From assembly GCA_035402825.1 (NCBI GenBank), contig DAONDZ010000001.1:44839-108838 (forward strand): a stretch of 64,000 nt of DNA. The letters run 5' to 3'. Position numbers and translations under genes: made by a program. This document shows positions 8,114 to 61,754 of this stretch, piece after piece (position 1 is the stretch's first letter; each line of letters starts with the position of its first letter). Source of the DNA: a bacterium. GTDB lineage: Bacteria > Patescibacteriota > Patescibacteriia > Patescibacteriales > UBA12465. The notes under the pieces were generated by a model that searched no databases, was not told the origin of the DNA, and worked only from the letters and a program-made list of their open reading frames with translations.

Positions 8114-9136
8114 TTAATCATGCAGACAACGAACCGACTGGCCAAAACCGGAATAACTCGGTTCAATTCGGATTGTAGAGTCGCTGCTGCCAATGTTTCT
8201 GTCATACGGAAACGAACCATATTGTAAAGAAGAGGTCCAATAATAAGCTTGGGTGTTTTGGTAGGAAAAATAAGAAGCGATAAAATACCACATGCCGGGA
8301 AAAAGCGAATTAAAACCGGAAGATCCTCCTAATTTTAACTTGGCACCTTCATCAGTGCCTCTAATCGCGGTCGGCTGAGTATCGCCATAGGGAAAATCGG
8401 TGACACAAGTGGCTGAAGTGCAAACCGCTCTTTCTAAGGTAGTCCACTCATCGTTAGTCGGGATATGCCAGTTATCCGGACAAATACCTTGAGCCCCGGC
8501 AGTAGTGCTGTATTGCATAGCCTCATTCCAAATATATAATCCGCCGCGAGCTGTGCAATTGGCATCCAAATCGTCAAAACAATATTTTTCCACTATACCG
8601 TTATTGGCTTGACCGGCGGTGCCATTAATTCGGACGCCGACATTTAAATTCTCCGCCATCCAACATTGCGTACCAATTTGAACCACGTCATAAGTATGGC
8701 CATCAACGGTCGGGGCTAAAAGCGCCTGGCAGCAATCGCCGGCGGAAGTGCCGCCGCTATGACCGCAGGTTTTGCCGGCGGGCAAACTAGAAACTTGGCC
8801 GCCTAAACAAAAATTCAAATAATAATTAGCTCCGGCATCAGCCTGAGTATATTGATAAGCATTGCTGGCGGCGGTACAGCTGCCGTCCGGGGTAGTCGGG
8901 GCGGTGGGAATATTGGCCAGATAAGTAGTTGTAGCGCCGGAAGAAGTAGAATAAATAGAACCAGAAGCCCATTCGGCGTCGCTGGGATAACGGCCCATAT
9001 CATTAAAAAATAATTCCAAGGCGGTGGAAATCTGTTTGATATCAGCCACCCGCTTAGTATCTCTAGCTTTGGCGCGAGCGGTATTTAAAGCAATAACGGA
9101 AATAGAAGCCAAGAGCCCGATAATGGCAATCACCAC
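8114..9136 (-). CDS. type IV pilin-like protein fused to a FISUMP (Fibrobacter succinogenes major paralogous, TIGR02145-type) domain; 5' end unresolved
   Basis: The N-terminus continues upstream in frame as ...IKSKKAFTLVELLVVIAIIGLLASI (prepilin helix). The C-terminus has CWMAENLN, GGLYIWNEA, CPDNWHIPTNDEW, SSGFNSL, YYWTSS and SVRCLHD. The GTG start of the ORF track lies inside the pilin helix. Confidence 0.8.
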   Translation of the reverse strand: MVIAIIGLLASISVIALNTARAKARDTKRVADIKQISTALELFFNDMGRYPSDAEWASGSIYSTSSGATTTYLANIPTAPTTPDGSCTAASNAYQYTQADAGANYYLNFCLGGQVSSLPAGKTCGHSGGTSAGDCCQALLAPTVDGHTYDVVQIGTQCWMAENLNVGVRINGTAGQANNGIVEKYCFDDLDANCTARGGLYIWNEAMQYSTTAGAQGICPDNWHIPTNDEWTTLERAVCTSATCVTDFPYGDTQPTAIRGTDEGAKLKLGGSSGFNSLFPGMWYFIASYFSYQNTQAYYWTSSLQYGSFPYDRNIGSSDSTIRIEPSYSGFGQSVRCLHD

Positions 9137-9275
9137 TAATAGTTCTACTAGGGTGAAGGCTTTTTTTGATTTTATAAAAATAAACTCATTAATTATTAAT
9201 TTAATTATAGCTTATTTCGCTAAAAGCAACAAAAAACCAAGGTGTTAAGCTAGCTCTTTGATGACGGTACTCTTT
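9042..9275. repeat. left arm of perfect 234-bp inverted repeat
   Basis: By manual block-wise reverse complementing, this is the exact reverse complement of 9947-10180. Position p pairs with 19222-p. Confidence 0.9.
9204..9232 (-). promoter_or_regulatory. sigma70-like promoter inside left IR arm (TTGTTG-17-TATAAT)
   Basis: Mirror image of 9990-10018. The TATAAT box lies about 15 nt upstream of the out-of-frame ATG. Confidence 0.45.
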
Positions 9276-9946: not shown

Positions 9947-10180
9947 AAAGAGTACCGTCATCAAAGAGCTAGCTTAACACCTTGGTTTTTTGTTGCTTTT
10001 AGCGAAATAAGCTATAATTAAATTAATAATTAATGAGTTTATTTTTATAAAATCAAAAAAAGCCTTCACCCTAGTAGAACTATTAGTGGTGATTGCCATT
10101 ATCGGGCTCTTGGCTTCTATTTCCGTTATTGCTTTAAATACCGCTCGCGCCAAAGCTAGAGATACTAAGCGGGTGGCTGA
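9947..10180. repeat. right arm of perfect 234-bp inverted repeat
   Basis: See left arm. Covers 139 nt upstream of the GTG at 10086 plus the first 95 nt of the ORF-track pilin CDS. Confidence 0.9.
9990..10018 (+). promoter_or_regulatory. sigma70-like promoter inside right IR arm (TTGTTG-17-TATAAT)
   Basis: -35 at 9990-9995, 17-nt spacer, TATAAT at 10013-10018. Confidence 0.45.
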
Positions 10181-11168
10181 CGTTAAACAAATTTCTACAG
10201 CCCTGGAATTATATTTTAACGACGCAGGAAGATATCCGACTGCCGCCGAATTTACTACAGGATCCCTTTATTCTACCTCGACCAACGGAACAACTACCTA
10301 TATGGCCACCGTCCCCCTGGCACCCGACCCGCCGGACGGCAATTGCAGCCAGGCAAATAATAATTATAATTACGTGGAAACGGAAAATGGCGCTGGCTAC
10401 CAGCTTGTTTTCTGTCTAGGAGGAAGAACCGGCAGTCTGAATAGTAATTGCGTTCAGGCCAGCCCGACCGGAATGGTCAACACCAATTCCAATCCCTTAT
10501 GTATCGTCGGCTTAAAATTATGGCTCGATGCCGCTGATACCAGTACCTTGTTTTCGGACGGGGATTGTTCGATCCCGGCGGCCGCCGACGGACTGGTCGG
10601 TTGCTGGCACGACAAAAGCGGCAATAACAATGATGCTCGACAGGTTTCTGGCCCCAGTCAAGCGGTCAGGAAAGACGGCGTCCAAAATGGCAAGACGGCT
10701 TTGCGCTTCGATGGAACGAATGATTTTTATTCACATAACAATATCACCGACGAACGCACTATCTTTTTCGTCATCAAGCATGCAGACGGAGACCAAGTAT
10801 ATCTCGGATATGACTATGATGCACCCCTCGGACACAGCGTCAGCTTTAATTGGAGCGGCGGAAACGCTTTTCCGGGCAGCACTTTCTTGAGTCCATTCGC
10901 ATCTCCTTATATCCTGAACGGTGCCGCTTATGACGATGCCGCAACGACGAATGCGATTTCTATTCCCAAGCCCTACCCCAATTTTCACATTTATTCCTTT
11001 GTCACGACCGACAATGTCGAAAGCGAATATATAGCCAATGACCGAAATACACCGAGTTATTATTGGGAGGGCGATATCGCCGAATTAATTATTTATAATG
11101 TGCCTTTAACCGATGCCGACCGTCTGAGCATCCAGAATTATCTGAACGACAAATACCATATCTATTAA
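10086..11168 (+). CDS. type IV pilin-like protein fused to a LamG/concanavalin-A-like lectin domain; 5' end unresolved
   Basis: Same N-terminal helix as 8114-9136. The C-terminus has LKLWLDAADTSTL, CWHDKSGNNNDA, NGKTALRFDGTNDF and GDIAELIIYNVPLTDADRLSIQNYLNDKY, typical of the LamG_3 family. Confidence 0.8.
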   Translation: MVIAIIGLLASISVIALNTARAKARDTKRVADVKQISTALELYFNDAGRYPTAAEFTTGSLYSTSTNGTTTYMATVPLAPDPPDGNCSQANNNYNYVETENGAGYQLVFCLGGRTGSLNSNCVQASPTGMVNTNSNPLCIVGLKLWLDAADTSTLFSDGDCSIPAAADGLVGCWHDKSGNNNDARQVSGPSQAVRKDGVQNGKTALRFDGTNDFYSHNNITDERTIFFVIKHADGDQVYLGYDYDAPLGHSVSFNWSGGNAFPGSTFLSPFASPYILNGAAYDDAATTNAISIPKPYPNFHIYSFVTTDNVESEYIANDRNTPSYYWEGDIAELIIYNVPLTDADRLSIQNYLNDKYHIY

Positions 11169-36470: not shown

Positions 36471-39400
36471 TTAAGCGCAAACGCGGAAAACCTCTTCCAC
36501 TGTGGTCTCGCCATTCAAAGCCTTCACTAAACCATCTTGCATCATGGTAATCATACCGGCCTGGACAGCCAAGGTTTCCACTTCCATATCGGTTAAATTG
36601 ATATTTTGGATAGCTTTCTGAATATCAGCATTCATGCCCACAGCTTCATATAATCCCAACCGGCCCTTATACCCCAAGAAACCGCATTGTTCGCAACCCA
36701 CGGCCTTGTAGGTCTTCCAGGGCAACGGAATCTGAGCTAGCGGGTTGGTAATCTGACTAATTATCTTCTTGACCTCGGTTTTAGTATTTTCGTCCAAGAA
36801 GGCTTCGGTTTTGCAATGCGGACATAATCTTCTGGCTAAACGCTGGCCAATGGCACATTCAATAGCGTTGGCTAATTGCTGTCGGTCCACTCCCAAGCCC
36901 ACGAAGCGAGAAATGGCTCCAGCGGCGGAATTAGCATGAATAGTGGAAAGCACCAGGTGGCCGGTCAAAGAAGCTTCAATGGCAATCTTGGCTGTTTCTT
37001 CATCTCTGATTTCACCGATCATCATGATGTTGGGATTCTGGCGCAACAGAGAACGCATCGCCATAGCAAAAGTATAACCGGCAGCGTTATCAATCTGAGT
37101 TTGAATTAATCCTTCCAATCGATATTCAATCGGATCTTCCACCGTGATAATCTTTACATCCGGCTTATTCAACTCTCTCAAAATACTATACAAGGTAGTA
37201 GTCTTGCCAGATCCGGTCGGACCGGTATTGATGATAATACCGCGAGTCTTTTTCATCGCCTCTTTAATCACCGGCAAGGTATAAGGAGCGATGCCTAGAG
37301 CATCTAAACTTAGATTGGCACCAGCGCCGGTCAATAAGCGGACTACTACAGTTTCACCATAGCCGCCGGAAATAATAGAAACGCGGCAATCAATTTTTTT
37401 ATCCGGCATAATAATCACAAAGCGTCCATCCATGGTCGCCTGTTTGACGTTGGTGGCAAAACCAGACAAAATCTTCACCTCGCTTAAAAGCGGCAAATAA
37501 TGATCAAAGGGCAAAGTAATAATATCATGCAAGACGCCATCAATACGGAAACGGATTTTCACCGCACCTTCCGCTGGTTCAATATGAATATCGCCGGCGT
37601 CTTCTTTGACCGCCAAAGCGGAAACTAAATGCAATAATTGTTTGGTCGGCATTTGAGCCAATATCTGACTTAACTCTTGCGGTTGTTTCAAAAGTCCTTG
37701 AGCTTGTTCTAATTCCGGCAGACTAATCTTAATACCCCGACCCATGGTTTGAGAAATAACAATATCATAAAGCTCATTGACGTAATCAAAGTCACCCGCC
37801 ACACGATAAACCTCTTCTAAACTGGTGGTGCCATCTAAAACCTTCAAGACACCATCTTGTAGCATGGTGACCATGCCGTTTTCAATAGCTTGCTGCAGTA
37901 TTTTAAAAGCCGGCGCACCGTCATTAGTTAGCTGCTTAATCTTGTCATCCATGGTAAACACTTCATAGATACCAATCCGGCCCTTATAACCAATGCCATT
38001 ACAAAACTCGCACCCCGGCCCCACTTTGTAAATTGCCGGCAAGGTGCTGGGAATATTAATACCCGCCTTAGGAGAAACCACGGCTAATATTTTTTTGACT
38101 TGCTCTTCTTCTTCGGAATTCAAAACATGAGCCTGTTTGCATTTAGGACATAATTGCCGCACCAAACGTTGACCCAAAACGGCATTGACCGCTGGGGTTA
38201 AAAAGAAAGGTTTGACTCCCATATCTACCAAGCGCGGGATAACACCAGAGGCGTCGTTAGTGTGCAAAGTGGAGAGCACTAAGTGACCGGTCAAAGAAGC
38301 TTGAACGGCAATTTCAGCCGTCTCCACATCTCTGATTTCGCCGACCATAATCACATTCGGATCCTGACGCAAAATAGAACGCAGGCCTTCAGCAAAAGTA
38401 TAGCCCTTCTTCGGGTCCACCTGACTCTGACTGATGCCTTTTAATTGATATTCGATCGGATCTTCCAAGGTGATAATCTTGGTGCCCGGCTGATTTAACT
38501 TATTTAAAATGGCGTACAAAGTAGTCGTCTTACCAGACCCGGTCGGACCGGTGGTGAGGATCAAGCCATTCGGTTTTTCCATAGCCACCTTTAATAGCTG
38601 AAACGACTCCGGACGCAAACCCAATTCTTCAAAAGGCAAACCGACCGATTGCGATTTCAAAAGACGCATCACCACGCTTTCGCCATAGGCAGTGGGCAAG
38701 AAAGAAGAACGAACATCCGCTATTTCATTATCCAAATAAATAGAATAGCGGCCGTCTTGAGGCTTGTCTTCAATATTAATCTTTACGCCGGCTAAAATCT
38801 TCATGCGGGAAATAATCTTTTTCCATTTCAGCTTGTCTATTACCGCCGCTTCCTGCAAAACGCCATCAATCCGCAAACGAACCACGATTCCCTGGGCCTC
38901 AGCTTCAATATGAATATCGGAAGCGCCGACTTTCAAGGCCGTAGCCAACATCAAAGTCACCACATCGGAAATGTTGACCTTGTTAATTTCCTCATTCAAA
39001 TTTTTATAGCTGCTGATAGCGGCCTCGAAACGTTTTAAATCTTCTGGTTTAATTTCCACGCCGCTTTCATATTTTTTTATCTTCGGCAAAATCTTGTAGA
39101 GCTCCAAAGCATAATTGAAACTTAATTCGGAAATTAAATAAAGGCGGCTATTAGTAAAATACTGGTTATTGAGATGATCAATAATCGCTCGAGAAGATGG
39201 TGTAACCGCGCCTACTAATCCTAATCTGATATTTTCACCATCGTAATAAAAACAAACTATCTTATTGGCCCGAGCTTCTTCTTCGGATATCAAACCGATA
39301 GCCTCTGGACTAATAGGAAAACCAAATAAATTAATATAACCTAAACCCGAAGCTGCGGCTTGAGCTTCGGTTTGTTCTTCTTGCTTTTTCGATTTTAATT

Positions 39401-39491
39401 CCGTCTCCTTCGCCAATAACTTCCCCTGCGGCGAATCATCGCCGCCGGTCTTTTGGCTTAAAAGAGCGTTGATGGAATCAAATCCACTCAT
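36471..39491 (-). CDS. pilB: type IV pilus/T2SS assembly ATPase (PilB/GspE family), tandem-duplicated: two complete ATPase modules in one chain
   Basis: 1006 aa. Two Walker A (TTGPTGSGKTTTLYAILNKL, NTGPTGSGKTTTLYSILREL), two Walker B/Asp boxes (IMVGEIRD, MMIGEIRD), two His boxes (TGHLVLSTLHTN, TGHLVLSTIHAN), two tetracysteine motifs. Confidence 0.9.
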   Translation of the reverse strand: MSGFDSINALLSQKTGGDDSPQGKLLAKETELKSKKQEEQTEAQAAASGLGYINLFGFPISPEAIGLISEEEARANKIVCFYYDGENIRLGLVGAVTPSSRAIIDHLNNQYFTNSRLYLISELSFNYALELYKILPKIKKYESGVEIKPEDLKRFEAAISSYKNLNEEINKVNISDVVTLMLATALKVGASDIHIEAEAQGIVVRLRIDGVLQEAAVIDKLKWKKIISRMKILAGVKINIEDKPQDGRYSIYLDNEIADVRSSFLPTAYGESVVMRLLKSQSVGLPFEELGLRPESFQLLKVAMEKPNGLILTTGPTGSGKTTTLYAILNKLNQPGTKIITLEDPIEYQLKGISQSQVDPKKGYTFAEGLRSILRQDPNVIMVGEIRDVETAEIAVQASLTGHLVLSTLHTNDASGVIPRLVDMGVKPFFLTPAVNAVLGQRLVRQLCPKCKQAHVLNSEEEEQVKKILAVVSPKAGINIPSTLPAIYKVGPGCEFCNGIGYKGRIGIYEVFTMDDKIKQLTNDGAPAFKILQQAIENGMVTMLQDGVLKVLDGTTSLEEVYRVAGDFDYVNELYDIVISQTMGRGIKISLPELEQAQGLLKQPQELSQILAQMPTKQLLHLVSALAVKEDAGDIHIEPAEGAVKIRFRIDGVLHDIITLPFDHYLPLLSEVKILSGFATNVKQATMDGRFVIIMPDKKIDCRVSIISGGYGETVVVRLLTGAGANLSLDALGIAPYTLPVIKEAMKKTRGIIINTGPTGSGKTTTLYSILRELNKPDVKIITVEDPIEYRLEGLIQTQIDNAAGYTFAMAMRSLLRQNPNIMMIGEIRDEETAKIAIEASLTGHLVLSTIHANSAAGAISRFVGLGVDRQQLANAIECAIGQRLARRLCPHCKTEAFLDENTKTEVKKIISQITNPLAQIPLPWKTYKAVGCEQCGFLGYKGRLGLYEAVGMNADIQKAIQNINLTDMEVETLAVQAGMITMMQDGLVKALNGETTVEEVFRVCA

Positions 39492-39499
39492 AAATTAAG

Positions 39500-40507
39500 T
39501 TAGCCTAACCTTGTCTTTAGGCTGTCCGGGGCTAAGCGCTCCATTTTGCTTTTGCCAAGGCCGGAATTAAGCTTCATGAAAATATCGGTCCAAGCCACTG
39601 TTTGAAAAGTGGTCAGAAGCGAACCGCAAATGACAACAAAAACGGTTAGAGTTAAGAATCCTAAAATCACCATCACCCAGAAAGCGCTGACTGAGAAGAG
39701 ATACAAGAAGGCCGCGGCCAAGATGATGAAAGGAATAGCCACTACCAAACAAGCCAAGAGCACGGCGAAAGTGGCCAAGAAGTTAACTGCGAACAACAAT
39801 AAACCGGACTCCACGGTAATTAGCCAATTCTTTCTAAACAAACGCCAACCCTGGACCAAAGCCACGCTGAACTTTTCGTTCTTCAAAACCAAGAAAGCAA
39901 TAGCATACTTAATAACCCAAGAGATACAAATAGCTACCGGGATAAAGATGATGAATAATATCAAGTAAATAGTATTAACGGCGAAACGATTAACCAACGG
40001 GAAAAGAAGCGGCAAGCTCACTAAGGTAATTGCCACATTAACTAGCACCTTGGAAATTAAGTTATAGCCAAACACCGGCCAAAACTGCTTATGAGCAAAA
40101 CGCAAATGCCAGCGCGCGGCCGGTTCCAACTTCTCTTTCGGATCATTGATAATCTTTTCGGAGTTTTTAACCAAAGCTACCTGCGAAGTCACGGCCAACC
40201 AAATTAAGAACACCACCAAGACCAAGAAGGCGATGAAAATAAAGAGGAAAATAGTAGTTGCTCCCGGCTGGGTCTTAAATAAATAGCCGATGTTGCTAAA
40301 AACCTTAGTACTAAACAGACCAGAATTGATAAAATTATACAAACTACCAAACCAAGTCATGGCCGCCTGAGAACTGGAAGGGCGGGACAAAATTTGGTAT
40401 TCAGCCCCAATAGACAACAAAGAAGCGAATAACCCAAAAAACCACAAAAATTTGTTTTTCCAACTGATTCTTAACGCTTGTTTAAGGATTTGACGATATG
40501 AGAACAT
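39500..40507 (-). CDS. polytopic hypothetical membrane protein
   Basis: 335 aa, about 7 TM. Immediately downstream of pilB on the same strand. Not PilC-like. Confidence 0.55.
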   Translation of the reverse strand: MFSYRQILKQALRISWKNKFLWFFGLFASLLSIGAEYQILSRPSSSQAAMTWFGSLYNFINSGLFSTKVFSNIGYLFKTQPGATTIFLFIFIAFLVLVVFLIWLAVTSQVALVKNSEKIINDPKEKLEPAARWHLRFAHKQFWPVFGYNLISKVLVNVAITLVSLPLLFPLVNRFAVNTIYLILFIIFIPVAICISWVIKYAIAFLVLKNEKFSVALVQGWRLFRKNWLITVESGLLLFAVNFLATFAVLLACLVVAIPFIILAAAFLYLFSVSAFWVMVILGFLTLTVFVVICGSLLTTFQTVAWTDIFMKLNSGLGKSKMERLAPDSLKTRLG

Positions 40508-40601
40508 AATGTTAAAAGCTAAAAATTAGCTATTAATTAATTTGAAAAACTTGTAATAGTTTGATAATATTATAACATATTAATTAATTACTAACAAATA
40601 T

Positions 40602-55142: not shown

Positions 55143-55502
55143 TTATCGTTTTCTCTCCTCATGCAGAACTATTTTCTTAACGATAAAATAAAGCACCACC
55201 AGTACGATGAGCAGGGTCAACAAAGTGCTAACTATGCCGCCGATATTAAATCTGATTCCCCGGACATAAAAATCTAAATCGCTGAAATTTTCCGCAGAAA
55301 ATATTACCTGGATCAAAGGAATAAAAAATCCTTTGACTAAAGCGTCCACAAAGTCTTTACCGGCTTGAGCGACAATGACGCCGATAGCCACTCCGAGTAC
55401 GGCATATTCCTTAATGAACTCGGAAATCTTGCCGAAGAGAGAGGAGATGGGTCTGGTATGTTTTATTTTTTCTATTCTACCTAACATATTATTTGGCATC
55501 AT
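55143..55502 (-). CDS. mscL: large-conductance mechanosensitive channel MscL
   Basis: [36 protein letters not shown] plus a second TM. The start is ambiguous (ATG at 55502, 55499 or 55487) and abuts the recA stop. Confidence 0.82.
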
Positions 55503-56538
55503 CAATCTTCTCTTGGGCCACCCCCTTTAAGACTGCCTCACGAATTTGAGCGATAATCTTCGGGTTGTCTTTCAAGAATTGTTTAGCGTTCTCACGGCCA
55601 GTGCCCAATTTAATATCGTTATAGGTATAGGTATTGCCGGATTTTTTAATCGCCCCGTAATTTACACCGCAATCTAAGACATCGCCAGCAGTAGAGATAC
55701 CTTCGTTATACATGATATCAAACTCAGCTACTTTAAACGGAGCAGCCACTTTATTCTTCACGATCTTAGCTCTAACCTGGTTGCCTAATATCTTGTCGCC
55801 TTGCTTGATCTGAGCGGTGCGGCGCACTTCGACGCGCACTGAACAATAAAACTTCAAAGCATTGCCGCCAGTAGTAGTTTCCGGACTGCCGAAGAAAACA
55901 CCAATTTTGTTTCTAATTTGGTTAATGAAGATAACAATGGTCTTGCTTTTGGAAACGATACCGGTCAATTTGCGCAAAGCTTGGCTCATCAATCTAGCCT
56001 GCAAGCCCATGTGCTGATCGCCCATATCACCCTCAATTTCTTTCTGCGGTACCAAAGCAGCCACGCTGTCTACAACGATAACATCCACGGCGTTAGAACG
56101 TACCAAGGTTTCTACAATGTCCAAAGCTTGTTCGCCGGTATCAGGCTGAGAGATTAACATCTCTTTGATATTAACACCTATTTTCTGGGCATAATCAGGG
56201 TCTAAAGCATGTTCAGCGTCTACAAAAGCGGCGATACCGCCCAACTTTTGAACTTCAGCCACAATGTGCTGGGCTAAGGTAGTTTTGCCGGATGATTCCG
56301 GACCAAAAATCTCAATAATTCGGCCTCGCGGTACACCGCCGATGCCGAAAGCGATATCTAAAGATAAGCAGCCGGTGGAGACAGCGTCAACATCAGTTTT
56401 GCGGACATCGCCAAATTTCATGATGGCTCCCTCGCCGAACTTGTCCTTAATCTGATTAATAGCGGTTAAAGCCGCTTCATCGCGGCCGGAATGATCGGCT
56501 TTCTTCTCAGCTTCGCTCTTAGGTTTTTCTTTGCTCAT
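55489..56538 (-). CDS. recA: recombinase RecA
   Basis: [48 protein letters not shown]. Confidence 0.97.
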
Positions 56539-56662
56539 ACACGTATCGCCCGCAGCTTTGAAGTGACCTCCAAAAGGTTTAAGGCAGAATTAAATATTAA
56601 TAAGGTAATGGTATCACAACCGGCCTGAAGCAATCATCAAAAATAAATAAAATTAGAATAAA

Positions 56663-59347
56663 CTACTGGGCGCAATTGCCATCTTCATCCAAAATCGCTC
56701 CCGGAGTACCATTGCAGCAAGATGGGTTAATTTGGGTAGCCAGACAAGTAGCGCTGGCGCTAGGCTTGAAACAATTCTGATAAATATCACGGACCGCGCT
56801 GCCGGCCTGGGAATTATAATCCACTGCTTCGGCCAGCATCACATGGTTCAGCCTGACTTTAGTATAATCCATTTCTCCGTCCTGAGGTGAATTATCAATA
56901 TTGTCGCCGGTAATCCAATAGCCTGGAGCCGGACCGGTCTTGGTGAAAAGATTGAAGAAATGATGATCAACAGTACTGGTGCCAATCTTAATAGTTTCGG
57001 AACCGCTGCGCAACGAGCTATTCATGAGCAAGGAATTAAAATCAACTACCACCGGATCAACTAAGTTATTGCTATTGCCATTAACCGCCGGGGTGATATC
57101 AGTGATTTTAGGCGGGTCAGTCGCTACTTGGTTGTTAATATAGAATGACCAGCGATAGTTATCCTTATAAGCCGCATTGCCGGCATTTTCATCATAGAAA
57201 TATCGCAGACCGCCCACTACTATCGGACCATCGGCATAAGTATCGCGGTTACCATCCAGGGAATTCATAGCTGCGTCCATAATACCAGAGGTGGTCGGGC
57301 TGGCAGCGATAGAATAATTGTGTCCGTTATTATCTTGGCAAGTCTTATGACCCAAGGAAGCATTATTAGCACAAGTGCTATAAGGAGCGACACAATCGGT
57401 ATCAGTACTACAAGTCTTTAAATCGGCCGCCATGATTTCAACCTTAATCTGAGAGCTGGCCGGCAAGCAATATATTTTTTCTCCGCAACCGTTCATGCCG
57501 CATTCTCGATTAGACTTGAACTCTACAGTTTTATAGCCATTAGCGATACTGAATTTTCCATCCAAATAATCACCAACACATTTATTGCTTTCACACTTAA
57601 ATGACAAACAAGCATTGTCGCTATTGCAAGTGGCGCCATTAGCCAAAGAACCGGCGCGAGCATTAACCACCCGCAAGCCATCTTTCAGCTGATCAGCGGT
57701 TCCAGAAACGGCAATGGGATTAAGGGCTTCGTTGAAATTAATTTGAATGACTGAGTTCATCGGTTTATCCGGTTTGTCGTTGACAGTAAAAGTAACTTGC
57801 TGATTAGCGCCGCCGGATAAAGGAATTACCTCAAAAGTTTGGTTGTTGTTAGTTAAAACCTCAATGCTATTGCCAGATTCTCCAGCCGCTTTAGCTCGCA
57901 AATTGACTCGAGTTGGAGACGCATCGGTAATAGTCGGCTCAACGTCGTTTCGACCGCTTAAGATGTCCTGAATTCGACTCGCTTGTTGTGGCAAACCACT
58001 AATACTTTGAATATTAACACTAGATGAGGCATTCACAAAAGTATAAACATCGCCGGAAATAGTAATTGTATCAGCGGTCTTTTCTGGAGAAACCGTGACA
58101 GTCCAAGAATTCCCCGGATCCCGGTCGTCCTCGCTGGCTAGTGTCAAAGAGAAATAGCCGGCGAAATTAACCGTCTTGCCGGAAAAATCGGCCAGACCTA
58201 AAGAACTACCTCCGGAGTATAATTGAGCTCTGGTGGCGCCTCCCTGGCCCACTAGAGTGACGGTAAAAATGGTATTCTGGCCTTGATAGCCGGCATCGGC
58301 TACGGCCGTGGCGTTCTGGTAACTGCCGCCGCCATTCTTGGCCACGGAAACGATACTGGCCGGAGCATAAACTTGCGGCTGTTGCTTTACTCGAATTGAT
58401 CCGGAAGCAAAAGCCCAATTGCTGCTAGTGGCCGCTTGGTCGCGATTATTATCCGGAGCCGGAAAGATGCCGCCGCTTCTCACTTGAGGCGGAGTTAAAT
58501 CTAATAAGCTATTAACCTCAAACTGCCAGCGGAAATAATCAGTAGAGCAGGTATCAAATAATTGTCGGCCATCAGCCTTTCTTAAATCGTTAGTTAAAGA
58601 AACAGTATACCAAGTATTAGCGGAAGCTGAGCCTAAAGGCGTAGTCGGGACAAAAACCAAAGTCATATCATTAGGAGTCATCACTTTCAAATCCGTAACG
58701 CTATTTTCAGCTCCGGCATCGGTAGGATAAACTTTTATTCTTTCCGAATTAGGTTTATTACAGGTATTAGTATTGCAAATACACTCGCCGCCGTTATCAT
58801 CAACGCAGACCGAACTCAAGTCTAATGATTCTTTAAAGGTAACGATAATTGAAGTATTGCGAGCTACATCTTTCTGATCAATTTCCGGATAAACACTATC
58901 TATCACGCAAGAACCAATAGCGCCAAATCCTAAAGCACCACCATTCTTGCCGCCATTATTTAATTCATTACCGGTTCCACCGGTAGTACCCAGAAGACGA
59001 CTGAAAATAAAAGTAACTATCCCCCAAGCTGATAAAATTATCGCTAAGCCGATTAAAGCATTGCGTAAAGTCTTTTTGGCTATCGCTATCTGCTCTTCAT
59101 TGCCGCCCGAAGTCATCCATTTAAAGCCGGCAAACAAAATAAGACCTACGGCAATCGTCCCCAAAAATATCATGAAGATATTAATGATCCGAGCCGCTAT
59201 CCGCAAAGGGCTTTCGGAGCCCAATTGGATGGCGCTATTAATTTCATTAGTGCCGACATCGACTGCTGCTCCGGCTTGAATTGCCGAAATTGCTAAAAGC
59301 AAGGCCACGCCCCCGATGATGTAGAAAAGACGTGATTTTTTTATCAT
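56663..59347 (-). CDS. large surface protein: TrbC/VirB2-like pilin-type N-terminal membrane module fused to about 770 aa of Cys-rich/Ig-like extracellular region
   Basis: N-terminus ...IFMIFLGTIAVGLILFAGFKWMTSGGNEEQIAIAKKTLRNALIGLAIILSAWGIVTFIF matches the GFxWMTAxGNEExxxKAKxxLxxAxIGLxIIL pattern of small pilin-like proteins common in Patescibacteria. SbsA-Ig-like segments follow (NTSIIVTFKESLDLSSV, SVIQINFNEALNPIAV). Confidence 0.7.
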   Translation of the reverse strand: MIKKSRLFYIIGGVALLLAISAIQAGAAVDVGTNEINSAIQLGSESPLRIAARIINIFMIFLGTIAVGLILFAGFKWMTSGGNEEQIAIAKKTLRNALIGLAIILSAWGIVTFIFSRLLGTTGGTGNELNNGGKNGGALGFGAIGSCVIDSVYPEIDQKDVARNTSIIVTFKESLDLSSVCVDDNGGECICNTNTCNKPNSERIKVYPTDAGAENSVTDLKVMTPNDMTLVFVPTTPLGSASANTWYTVSLTNDLRKADGRQLFDTCSTDYFRWQFEVNSLLDLTPPQVRSGGIFPAPDNNRDQAATSSNWAFASGSIRVKQQPQVYAPASIVSVAKNGGGSYQNATAVADAGYQGQNTIFTVTLVGQGGATRAQLYSGGSSLGLADFSGKTVNFAGYFSLTLASEDDRDPGNSWTVTVSPEKTADTITISGDVYTFVNASSSVNIQSISGLPQQASRIQDILSGRNDVEPTITDASPTRVNLRAKAAGESGNSIEVLTNNNQTFEVIPLSGGANQQVTFTVNDKPDKPMNSVIQINFNEALNPIAVSGTADQLKDGLRVVNARAGSLANGATCNSDNACLSFKCESNKCVGDYLDGKFSIANGYKTVEFKSNRECGMNGCGEKIYCLPASSQIKVEIMAADLKTCSTDTDCVAPYSTCANNASLGHKTCQDNNGHNYSIAASPTTSGIMDAAMNSLDGNRDTYADGPIVVGGLRYFYDENAGNAAYKDNYRWSFYINNQVATDPPKITDITPAVNGNSNNLVDPVVVDFNSLLMNSSLRSGSETIKIGTSTVDHHFFNLFTKTGPAPGYWITGDNIDNSPQDGEMDYTKVRLNHVMLAEAVDYNSQAGSAVRDIYQNCFKPSASATCLATQINPSCCNGTPGAILDEDGNCAQ

Positions 59348-59458
59348 TTTATTGGTAGTTAATTATATATTGTCTATCAATATTATAGCATAAACTATAA
59401 TAACCAAAAAGAGGCTTGGTCGCCTCTTAATTTCGCTAATTTGGGATAAAATGTCGCT

Positions 59459-60715
59459 TTAAAATAAACCTATTTGTTTGGCTTTGGGCCCGACCTCGGC
59501 TTCAGAAAAAATATTAATTCTACCATATTCCCCATCAAATCCAGGATTGATAATTAATTTCCCGGCTCGGACCCTTTCCACCCCCAAAGCAATCAATTCG
59601 CCCGCTGCTTCTTTAAACTTTTTCAAATCAAGATAAAGCAAAATATTTATCTCGCTGCCGAAGATACCTATCAAACGATCATATTCCCGTCGGACTTTTT
59701 GTGAGCTTCGGCTTTTGATATTAAAAGATTCGGCGATTATCTTATCCAGCCCGACTAAACGTTGGAAAGCGCGTGGTTTCTTTTTGGTGCCAATTTCCCT
59801 GTCAGCTAGTTCTTCCAGGCGGTAAGCCACACCCACAGTCAAAGGGCGGCGACATTTAGGACAAATCCCTTTGAGTTTTTTAGTTTCGGCTGGAGCACAG
59901 CTAAAGCCGCAGGCGCGATGTCCGTCAAAATGGTACATACCCTCTTCCGGATAAAACTCAATAGTGGAAACAATCCGTTCTGGCTCATTCTTTAAAATCT
60001 GATAAAGATCAGCGTAAGATTCTTCTTTCATTTCTAAAACGTTGGCCTCGCGGCCGATATTCATCGGGCTGTGGGCGTCGGAGTTAGAAAGACAGGCCAG
60101 ATTATCCAAAGCCGAAACCCGATCATTCATTTCCGGGTCGCTGGAGAGTCCGGTTTCAAAAGCAAAAATATTTTCAGTCTGTTCATGAAAACACTCTTCC
60201 AAAAAATCAAATCCCGACTTGGAACCAAAAACTGAAAACCAAGGAGTCCAAATATGGGCGGGATAAACAATAAACTTAGGGTCAATCTGCAAACAAAGAG
60301 CCACTAGTTTCGGGGCGGTAGTCCCTAGTATCGGCCGACCATCAGACTTCAAATTAAAGCTTAGTCCTAACTGGCGATTTAATTCCGTAGCGGCGGCGAT
60401 ATTAGGAGCATGAATTACCAAATGAATTCTCCGCGCCCGGCCGCCATCTTTATAAATTAAAGCTACTTCGGTGGATAATAAAAATTTTATTCTCTCATAT
60501 TTTCCCGAACGCAATTTATACAATCCCGCCCCTGGTCTTGTCTCCACTAATTCTTTGGTAATAAACGAAAACCACTGGGGATGAGTAAAATCACCAGTGG
60601 CCACGATATCAATTCCTTTAATTTGAGAATACTTAGCAATATTTTCCAAGGTCAAATCCTTAGAGCAAGCCCGGGAATAACGAGAATGAATATGTCCGTC
60701 AAAAACCTGACGCAT
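59459..60715 (-). CDS. endonuclease Q-like PHP-domain protein
   Basis: DGHIHSRYSRACSKDLTLENI...GIDIVATGDFTHPQWF, PAHIWTPW, SNSDAHSP, CPKCRRPLTVGV and a C-terminal GGxGEYG-like tail. Collinear with my recollection of archaeal EndoQ. Confidence 0.7.
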   Translation of the reverse strand: MRQVFDGHIHSRYSRACSKDLTLENIAKYSQIKGIDIVATGDFTHPQWFSFITKELVETRPGAGLYKLRSGKYERIKFLLSTEVALIYKDGGRARRIHLVIHAPNIAAATELNRQLGLSFNLKSDGRPILGTTAPKLVALCLQIDPKFIVYPAHIWTPWFSVFGSKSGFDFLEECFHEQTENIFAFETGLSSDPEMNDRVSALDNLACLSNSDAHSPMNIGREANVLEMKEESYADLYQILKNEPERIVSTIEFYPEEGMYHFDGHRACGFSCAPAETKKLKGICPKCRRPLTVGVAYRLEELADREIGTKKKPRAFQRLVGLDKIIAESFNIKSRSSQKVRREYDRLIGIFGSEINILLYLDLKKFKEAAGELIALGVERVRAGKLIINPGFDGEYGRINIFSEAEVGPKAKQIGLF

Positions 60716-60716
60716 A

Positions 60717-61754
60717 CTAGAGAGTAGCTAATTGCTCTAATTGTCCCTCAGCCGTCTCTTGATCAATCAAATTTTGTTCATAGAGTTCGCGAATGTGGCG
60801 GCTCATGGTAATCATGCCTTCGCTATAACCGGTTTCAATGACATTCTTAATCTGCTGGATCTTTTGCTCCCGAATTAAGTTGGCAATAGCCGCGTTGCGG
60901 ATCATAATTTCTCTGGCCACAATTCGGCCGCCGCCCACTTTAGGCAATAACTTCTGAGAAATAACCGCTGATAACACGGTAGTCAACTGAGAACGAATTT
61001 GAGCCTGTTGATAAGGAGGGAAAACATCAATAATTCTATCAATAGTCTGAGCGGCATTAAAAGTATGCAAAGTGGCTAACACCAAATGTCCGGTTTCAGC
61101 TAAAGTAATGGCCGCGGCAATAGTTTCCAAGTCGCGCAACTCACCGACCATAATTACATTCGGGTCTTGGCGCACCACATGCTTCAAGCCGGCCGAAAAA
61201 GAAGTCAAATCAAAACCGAGCTGGCGCTGAGTGATAATACTTTTGTTGGAGGTAAATAGATATTCAATCGGGTCCTCAAAGGTAATGATATTATGAGCGA
61301 AATTATCATTCAAATAATTAATCATAGCCGCCAAGGTAGTTGATTTTCCGGACCCGGTCGGACCGGTAACCAATATCAATCCTTGTTGATGGCCCAATAG
61401 TTTGTAAATCACTTTAGGGATACCGATTTCATCTAAAGACGGCGGCTGCTGTCTCACTACGCGGGCCACCATGCGATAATGGTCTCTTTCAAAAGAAAAA
61501 TTAACGCGGAACCGCGTGTTGTTTACCGAATAACCCAAGTCTAAATCTTTTTCCTGATCCAATCTGGTTCTTTGATCGGCATTTAACATGGTCTTTACCA
61601 CATTCATCAGAGCCTCATCATTAATCACCTCAAAATTATCTAAACTGATTAATTTTCCGTCTACCCTAATTAATGGTTTCAGATTACAAACCACATGTAA
61701 ATCTGAAGCCCAGCGATCCGCGGCTACTTGTAATAAATCATTGATATTTACCAT
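60717..61754 (-). CDS. pilT: type IV pilus retraction ATPase PilT
   Basis: 345 aa. ASDLHV, VTGPTGSGKSTTLAAMINYLN, IMVGELRDLETI, TGHLVLATLHT. Confidence 0.9.
   Translation of the reverse strand: MVNINDLLQVAADRWASDLHVVCNLKPLIRVDGKLISLDNFEVINDEALMNVVKTMLNADQRTRLDQEKDLDLGYSVNNTRFRVNFSFERDHYRMVARVVRQQPPSLDEIGIPKVIYKLLGHQQGLILVTGPTGSGKSTTLAAMINYLNDNFAHNIITFEDPIEYLFTSNKSIITQRQLGFDLTSFSAGLKHVVRQDPNVIMVGELRDLETIAAAITLAETGHLVLATLHTFNAAQTIDRIIDVFPPYQQAQIRSQLTTVLSAVISQKLLPKVGGGRIVAREIMIRNAAIANLIREQKIQQIKNVIETGYSEGMITMSRHIRELYEQNLIDQETAEGQLEQLATL

Follow-up and report, generated by a model that had tools for sequence, protein, structure and literature searches.

How a pilus-type motor is assembled when two ATPase modules are carried by a single chain, and why both of them are kept, is the question raised by a gene in a 64-kb stretch of DNA from a bacterium of the Patescibacteriota (GenBank assembly GCA_035402825.1, contig DAONDZ010000001.1, positions 44,839 to 108,838 of the forward strand). 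This stretch of 64,000 nucleotides is called the window in the following, and coordinates are counted from its first letter. Motors of the PilB/GspE type are usually single-module proteins of 550-600 amino acids (aa), whereas the gene considered here encodes a tandem of two modules, A and B, in 1006 aa. The reading that we favour, to which we assign a probability of about 0.6, is that three such chains form an alternating A-B pseudo-hexamer driving type IV pilus extension.

The fused protein is a secretion ATPase of the PilB/GspE clade in which a single putative N1 domain (N1D) is followed by two sets of N2 domain (N2D) and C-terminal ATPase domain (CTD), in the order N1D-N2D-CTD-linker-N2D-CTD. 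Its parts, in the order of the protein, are the following, with residue roles mapped from the study of Geobacter metallireducens PilB (PMC5424180) and the fold of single regions taken from an AlphaFold2 (AF2) model of the monomer.

36471..39491, minus strand: whole gene, 1006-aa tandem PilB/GspE-type ATPase, with an ATG start and the stop codon at 36471-36473.
39090..39347, minus strand: N1 domain (aa 49-134), GSPII/MshEN-like, in module A only, placed by a PF05157 match below cutoff and by the AF2 model.
38952..39089, minus strand: linker A (aa 135-180), between the N1D and N2D of module A, with many positions conserved only in A.
38622..38951, minus strand: N2 domain of module A (aa 181-290), with the arginine fingers R261 and R276.
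37794..38621, minus strand: CTD ATPase of module A (aa 291-566), with Walker A K321, Asp box E347, Walker B E385, pore loop D388/E390, His box H403/H410 and zinc site C448/C451/C494/C497.
37626..37793, minus strand: inter-module linker (aa 567-622, 56 residues), homologous to linker A and of low AF2 confidence.
37296..37625, minus strand: N2 domain of module B (aa 623-732), with the arginine fingers R703 and R718.
36474..37295, minus strand: CTD ATPase of module B (aa 733-1006), with K763, E789, E827 and D830/E832, His box H845/H852 and zinc site C890/C893/C933/C936.

The preliminary description of this DNA, made from its letters only, had claimed that every hallmark occurs twice in one open reading frame, and each has been found where it was placed: Walker A (GPTGSGKT) at aa 315 (38549-38526, minus strand) and aa 757 (37223-37200, minus strand), the Asp box (DPIE) at aa 344 and aa 786, Walker B (GEIRD) at aa 384 and aa 826, the His box (TGHLV) at aa 401 and aa 843, and the tetracysteine pairs CPKC/CEFC at aa 448/494 and CPHC/CEQC at aa 890/933. 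The Pfam family T2SSE (PF00437) matches the fused frame twice, and modules scanned singly reach 395.7 bits (A) and 362.1 bits (B) against a cutoff of 24.9, each spanning positions 7-370 of the 370 in the profile. Aligned to each other, residues 125-566 and 567-1006 share 43% identity over 445 residues (E = 1e-124). This self-alignment sets the junction of A and B at aa 566/567, base 37793, inside the interval of 37740-37800 that had been proposed. An MshEN-like N-terminal region is confined to the first module, again as described, although the PF05157 match to residues 49-130 is weak (19.9 bits against a cutoff of 23.1) and none has been observed in module B. The same match has been precomputed for many homologues of the fused ATPase, and in the AF2 model the region adopts a beta-alpha fold with a predicted local distance difference test (pLDDT) score of about 80-89.

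The fusion has been found to be widespread in its own lineage. In a homologue search over 5.8 billion proteins, the architecture has been recovered in at least 120 clusters, whose proteins are 1003-1012 aa long, match with 65-100% identity and 100% coverage and are attributed, where named, to Candidatus Falkowbacteria, Parcubacteria or Patescibacteria. An identical protein is encoded by 10 contigs, which come from assemblies made independently (NCBI and JGI). A relative is encoded by 193 species-representative genomes; in the best 80 of these 193 the match runs unbroken from residue 1 to ~1004 with 63-87% identity, and the complete chromosome CP066698.1, with an uninterrupted fused gene, is one of the 80. 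The fusion is fixed across Candidatus Falkowbacteria. That sequencing or assembly has wrongly joined two adjacent pilB genes, or that a stop codon between them was lost recently, is practically out of the question: nothing has been found in its favour, conservation of the frame across assemblies and species speaks against it, as does the 43% identity of the halves, which leaves no collapsed repeat, and the inter-module linker is itself under purifying selection. For this linker, which is the fastest-evolving segment, the ratio of non-synonymous to synonymous substitution rates (dN/dS) has been estimated at 0.12 and for both ATPase cores at about 0.03, values that are approximate, as they come from comparison with an 87%-identical homologue for which dS is saturated. 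The claim of one genuine fused chain has thus held up against the collapsed gene pair that the preliminary description had itself named as a caveat, given the unbroken frame and the purifying selection on both halves.

Outside this group the architecture is rare. When 1.84 billion cluster representatives were scanned exhaustively with HMMER, 56,041 T2SSE proteins were obtained, among which ~14 two-module proteins of 978-1047 aa (P0121-P0134, 38-63% identical) have been recognised; of the roughly 15,800 cluster representatives that match T2SSE strongly, ~14 have the architecture. Those with names belong to Parcubacteria and Paceibacterota. The preliminary description had pointed to Patescibacteria as the group to survey, and the carriers, Candidatus Falkowbacteria, Parcubacteria and Paceibacterota, bear this out. 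Both modules are intact in 13 of the 14 distant representatives. P0134 has a degenerate module A, with GPTGSGTTT in place of a Walker A lysine and EDPVQ without the Asp-box glutamate, and P0132 has lost the zinc cysteines of module B. Many records of metagenome-assembled genomes with the Falkowbacteria-type locus (L008-L087) are titled 'uncultured Gammaproteobacteria bacterium'; these titles look wrong, as gene content and synteny are Patescibacteria-like.

Regarding the catalytic state of the two halves, conservation has been counted over the 120 clusters, and in each of the two modules all 12 of the key catalytic residues reach 99-100%. The mapped residues include the Walker A lysine, the magnesium-binding Asp-box glutamate, the catalytic glutamate, a pair of arginine fingers of the N2D, two histidines of the His box, the sensor threonine, the aspartate and glutamate of the pore loop, and R455; all eight zinc cysteines are 100% conserved. 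Module B alone aligns with the PilF, PilB and GspE cores of the Protein Data Bank (PDB) over N2D plus CTD with E values of 1e-82 to 1e-88, and single modules of the AF2 monomer (pLDDT 80) superpose on G. metallireducens PilB (5TSH) with target-normalised Foldseek TM-scores of 0.86-0.92. Both modules keep all residues for ATP binding, hydrolysis and inter-subunit sensing and are apparently active; careful alignment has revealed no half with lost catalytic residues. The modules have nevertheless diverged: at 27 aligned positions A and B have each become fixed for a residue of their own, conservation restricted to A is seen at 43 positions and conservation restricted to B at 13, and non-synonymous change has been 1.3-1.7 times faster in B. 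The earlier suggestion that the halves may specialise is therefore partly supported by these alignments, in that fixed differences and a tighter constraint on A are observed, and not in the sense of a loss of catalytic residues, which has occurred in neither.

On the strength of these sequence features the fused protein is assigned to the T2SSE family (PilT/VirB11-like), as both modules exceed the PF00437 gathering score with a full motif set in each, and to the PilB/GspE clade, whose tetracysteine zinc subdomain is present in both CTDs, with a weakly matched, putative N1 domain in module A. Assignment to one functional type is less sharp. For the PilB equivalog TIGR02538 (cutoff 675.65) the whole protein scores 846.9, module A 461.3 and module B 393.1, and for the GspE equivalog TIGR02533 (cutoff 630.25) the corresponding values are 895.8, 485.7 and 418.1; the passing scores of the whole protein have been rejected as a summation artefact of two sub-cutoff modules. 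Scores for ComGA (NF041000, cutoff 300) are 246.4 and 234.6, and those for PilT/PilU (TIGR01420, cutoff 319.1) are 183.6 and 152.9, and the tetracysteine site is present, while PilT/PilU ATPases have no zinc subdomain.

Among known systems, G. metallireducens PilB (5TSG/5TSH/6OLJ) has the same fold of N2D plus CTD as each module at 44-47% identity and an N1 domain, to which the putative one of module A would correspond, and shares Walker A, the Asp box, the atypical Walker B, the His box, the arginine fingers, the pore-loop acids and the tetracysteine zinc site. Unlike PilB, the fused chain has two modules per single N1 domain, and a homohexamer of identical subunits is impossible. GspE/EpsE (1P9R, 4KSR, 4PHT) belongs to the same clade, with the zinc-binding C-terminal subdomain, and gives the best NCBIfam score for each module, but it is single-module, whereas the fused protein is tandem, with each module below the GspE cutoff. 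As an outer membrane or secretin is not known for the host lineage (PMC6744442), classical type II secretion is unlikely. Thermus thermophilus PilF (6F8L, 5OIU) is also long (~890 aa), with a core that is 41-44% identical, but its length comes from three N-terminal GSPII domains on one ATPase module, and that of the fused protein from a second ATPase module. More remote parallels are offered by KaiC, p97 and ClpB with stacked tandem domains, by the alternating subunits of F1/V1 alpha3-beta3 and by the engineered covalent linkage of ClpX, which share the concept of two modules per chain or of enforced alternation and belong to different ATPase families. Our literature search has found neither a natural in-ring tandem for the PilT/VirB11-like family nor a paper on a tandem PilB/GspE, although fused sequences have been public since the 2015 genomes of the candidate phyla radiation (CPR; e.g., KKU82539.1), annotated only as 'GspE/PulE family protein'.

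How three chains could work as one motor is suggested by the architecture of PilB, in which the packing unit of the hexamer consists of the N2D of one subunit and the CTD of its neighbour (PMC5424180). Three fused chains would close one six-module ring in the strict order A-B-A-B-A-B, with only three N1 domains, and the 56-residue linker, on the shortest path, would tie the CTD of A to the N2D of B inside one packing unit, so that a covalent staple would hold three of the six packing units. According to the C2 rotary cycle that has been described for PilB, modules on opposite sides of the ring have their nucleotide state in common and fire at the same time. With the order ABABAB, each such pair would always consist of one A and one B, and loss of either module would cripple every firing pair; that neither module has been allowed to decay may be due to this need for one A and one B in each pair. 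The ring would drive a PilC-type platform on which the type IV pilins encoded in the genome are polymerised, PilT would retract the filament, and the resulting pilus may serve attachment or DNA uptake.

Candidate partners of such a motor have been found in the window, at a distance from the fused gene.

60717..61754, minus strand: 345-aa retraction ATPase of the PilT/PilU family (416 bits for TIGR01420, cutoff 319), candidate partner, not adjacent.
8114..9178, minus strand: pilin-like gene, candidate substrate, not adjacent, with the prepilin N-terminus KSKKA|FTLVELL and a Fib_succ_major C-terminal domain.
10044..11168, plus strand: second pilin-like gene, candidate substrate, not adjacent, with an identical N-terminus in divergent orientation.

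No pilC, pilM, pilN, pilO or pilD has been found within the 64-kb window or within 10 kb of the ATPase in the nine kinds of locus inspected. The preliminary description was thus right that pilC, pilM, pilN and pilO are not adjacent, yet the window does hold two pilin genes and PilT. In CPR bacteria, parts of the type IV pilus are widespread and often dispersed (PMC6744442; PMC6668835). A 426-nt inverted repeat is common to the two pilin-like genes, with arms at 8850-9275 and 9947-10372 (85% complementary), spanning the promoter regions and the identical prepilin N-termini; gene conversion or a switch by recombination could lie behind it. No prepilin motif after an ATG has been matched by a strict regular expression, and neither pilin gene (~9170-9180 minus, ~10044-10052 plus) has an in-frame ATG, GTG or TTG before KSKKA|FTLVE. 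The sole nearby ATG is out of frame and meets a TAA after five codons; a start at ATA or ATT (MKSKKAFTLVE), ~30 nt past a TATAAT box, seems required. The PilT/PilU gene forms part of a second secretion-type cluster on the minus strand (55489-61754), ~17-22 kb from the fused ATPase, which further contains the following genes.

59459-60715, minus strand: TIGR00375/PHP-like protein, 418 aa.
56663-59347, minus strand: protein of 894 aa with a T4SS_pilin domain at its N-terminus and also a Big_5 domain.
55489-56538, minus strand: RecA.

The immediate surroundings of the fused gene are of a different kind.

40569..40597, minus strand: best sigma-70-like promoter match (10/12, extended -10), upstream of the membrane-protein gene.
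39500..40507, minus strand: polytopic membrane protein, 335 aa, DUF7544-like, upstream of the ATPase, its stop 8 bp before the ATPase ATG.
35873..36445, minus strand: translin-family gene, 190 aa, 26 bp past the ATPase stop.
35370..35876, minus strand: YfcE-type metallophosphoesterase, next to the translin gene in the same direction.

A seven-transmembrane protein had been described as following the ATPase gene and as unrelated to it. It has turned out to lie upstream on the same strand, and in the neighbourhoods of the best 80 of the 193 species genomes, to which the locus counts refer, a homologue precedes the ATPase in all 80, diverged to 27-73% identity. Translin lies downstream in 77 of these loci and the YfcE-type phosphoesterase in 72, and an inositol-monophosphatase-like gene joins the block in some. 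The conserved block consists of the DUF7544-like membrane protein, the ATPase, translin and the phosphoesterase; tRNA synthetase genes are equally syntenic in these loci. The promoter match is a weak candidate for an operon promoter, as the total number of such sites is not above that in shuffled sequences. The membrane-protein family has 334 members, which carry, where named, Patescibacteria-type names only, and matches DUF7544 only weakly. That it is a divergent PilC has been considered and is not supported: no T2SSF match has been found, and its topology is mostly transmembrane. The translin-family protein (PF01997, E = 2e-18) lies directly downstream of PilB in fused and single-module loci (L093, 12444-13013), and in NCBIfam it receives only sub-threshold 'HAD superfamily PRK14562' labels.

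The origin of the fusion can be traced in relatives in which the same slot, between the DUF7544-like membrane protein and translin, is occupied by a single-module PilB, of 569 aa in the Parcubacteria contigs L093 and L094 and of 578 aa in L092; the membrane protein and translin thus accompany ordinary PilBs as well. The order in L093 and L094 is FtsH, DUF7544-like membrane protein, ATPase and translin, with Metallophos_2, Inositol_P and UvrA further on. Their 569-aa PilB, which is without the linker and module B, aligns with module A over its whole length at 54% identity, and its identity to module B is 42%. It ends in EVFRVSE exactly where the fused protein runs on (EVYRVAG, followed by DFDY), which makes the fused gene the positional orthologue of a normal PilB; as these alignments indicate, the linker and an N1-less second module are appended to the C-terminus of the lineage's ordinary PilB. 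A recent tandem duplication has been rejected for the lineage of the window, the halves being only 43-47% identical, and is the case in P0129, where modules A and B are 74% identical. For P0129, P0128 and P0134, module A branches with module B of the same protein (bootstrap 100, 89 and 99; A-B identity in P0128 57% and in P0134 44%), and by this branching these fusions are evidently independent internal duplications. The deep nodes of the neighbour-joining bootstrap tree, which bear on a possible single origin of the A and B modules across all fused lineages, are without support.

At four distant fused loci (L088, L089, L090 and L091) the membrane protein and translin have not been found. RuvB lies downstream in all four, one to several genes away; three of them have TsaE and a ~385-aa protein (a DHH phosphoesterase in two of the three) upstream, together with PolA. 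In the fourth, a PolX-like polymerase lies directly upstream, and RuvC is found further downstream in two of the four.

Several observations weigh against three chains forming one alternating pilus motor. The AF2 monomer has a predicted TM-score (pTM) of only 0.47 with a low-confidence linker, so that it gives no prediction of how the modules are placed to one another; each module falls below the NCBIfam equivalog cutoffs for PilB, GspE and ComGA; the platform and assembly genes named above are missing from the surroundings of the ATPase; the deep nodes of the module tree lack support, with a bootstrap of 46 for the main B clade; and the saturated dS leaves the dN/dS figures rough. The freedom in module orientation leaves room for another geometry, in which six chains would build two stacked rings, an A hexamer and a coaxial B hexamer with twelve ATPase sites, as in KaiC, p97 and ClpB. 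Where one chain carries P-loop ATPase domains in tandem, these usually stack; the linker, of 56 residues and partly helical, would be long enough, and the pore-loop acids are kept in both modules. A ring of the PilB type is, however, held together by units of N2D(n) and CTD(n+1) and turns one face to the membrane platform (PMC5424180), so that a second ring would be without access to PilC. Taking into account also that module B lacks the N1 domain, the contact to the membrane complex, which fits the sharing of one ring, and that no stacked PilT-like ATPase structure is among the PDB matches, we regard stacking as unlikely. Far less probable still is a non-catalytic module with a regulatory or structural role, like alpha in F1 alpha3-beta3, which would leave three hydrolysing sites: the faster non-synonymous change in B, the surplus of positions conserved only in A and the degenerate module A of P0134 would fit it, but the catalytic and sensing residues are invariant in both modules of the window's family and likewise kept in 13 of the 14 distant representatives.

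A doubtful, though somewhat less remote, alternative concerns the machine rather than the ring. The ATPase might power DNA uptake, nucleic-acid import or a secretion pseudopilus, working with the DUF7544-like protein and handing its substrate to translin and the phosphoesterases, which would salvage nucleotides. In its favour, the gene block from the membrane protein to the YfcE-type phosphoesterase is conserved with fused and single-module ATPases, the neighbours at distant fused loci are nucleic-acid enzymes, ComGA is among the related models, and CPR bacteria are believed to rely on DNA taken in from outside (PMC6744442). Compact related genomes can, however, keep gene order without a functional link, as the equally syntenic tRNA synthetase genes illustrate; the distant fused lineages are without the membrane protein, both modules stay below the ComGA cutoff, and no ComEC or ComEA gene has been seen nearby. 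The alternating pilus motor remains the reading that we prefer. A more far-reaching version of it, in which a trimer of covalent heterodimers with enforced alternation, stapled units and three N1 domains has arisen at least four times in Patescibacteria and, together with the DUF7544-like protein and translin, serves pilus-linked nucleic-acid uptake and salvage in Falkowbacteria, is offered tentatively and is on balance less probable than not.

The firing order of PilB-type hexamers is still argued from crystal and cryo-electron microscopy snapshots, with C2 firing of opposite pairs set against C3 alternation and with the number of live sites needed in dispute. A natural tandem fixes which module takes which ring position, and mutating A or B alone would put dead sites at alternate positions with no engineered linkers, so that the fused motor would allow a direct test of the firing pattern. 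We have found no published description of a tandem PilB/GspE architecture, while the sequences themselves are already public. The block of DUF7544-like membrane protein, PilB and translin provides a testable functional context for two uncharacterised protein families. Pili of ultra-small episymbiotic bacteria are central to host attachment and DNA acquisition, and the repeated origin of so rare an architecture in such bacteria suggests that it confers a selective advantage.

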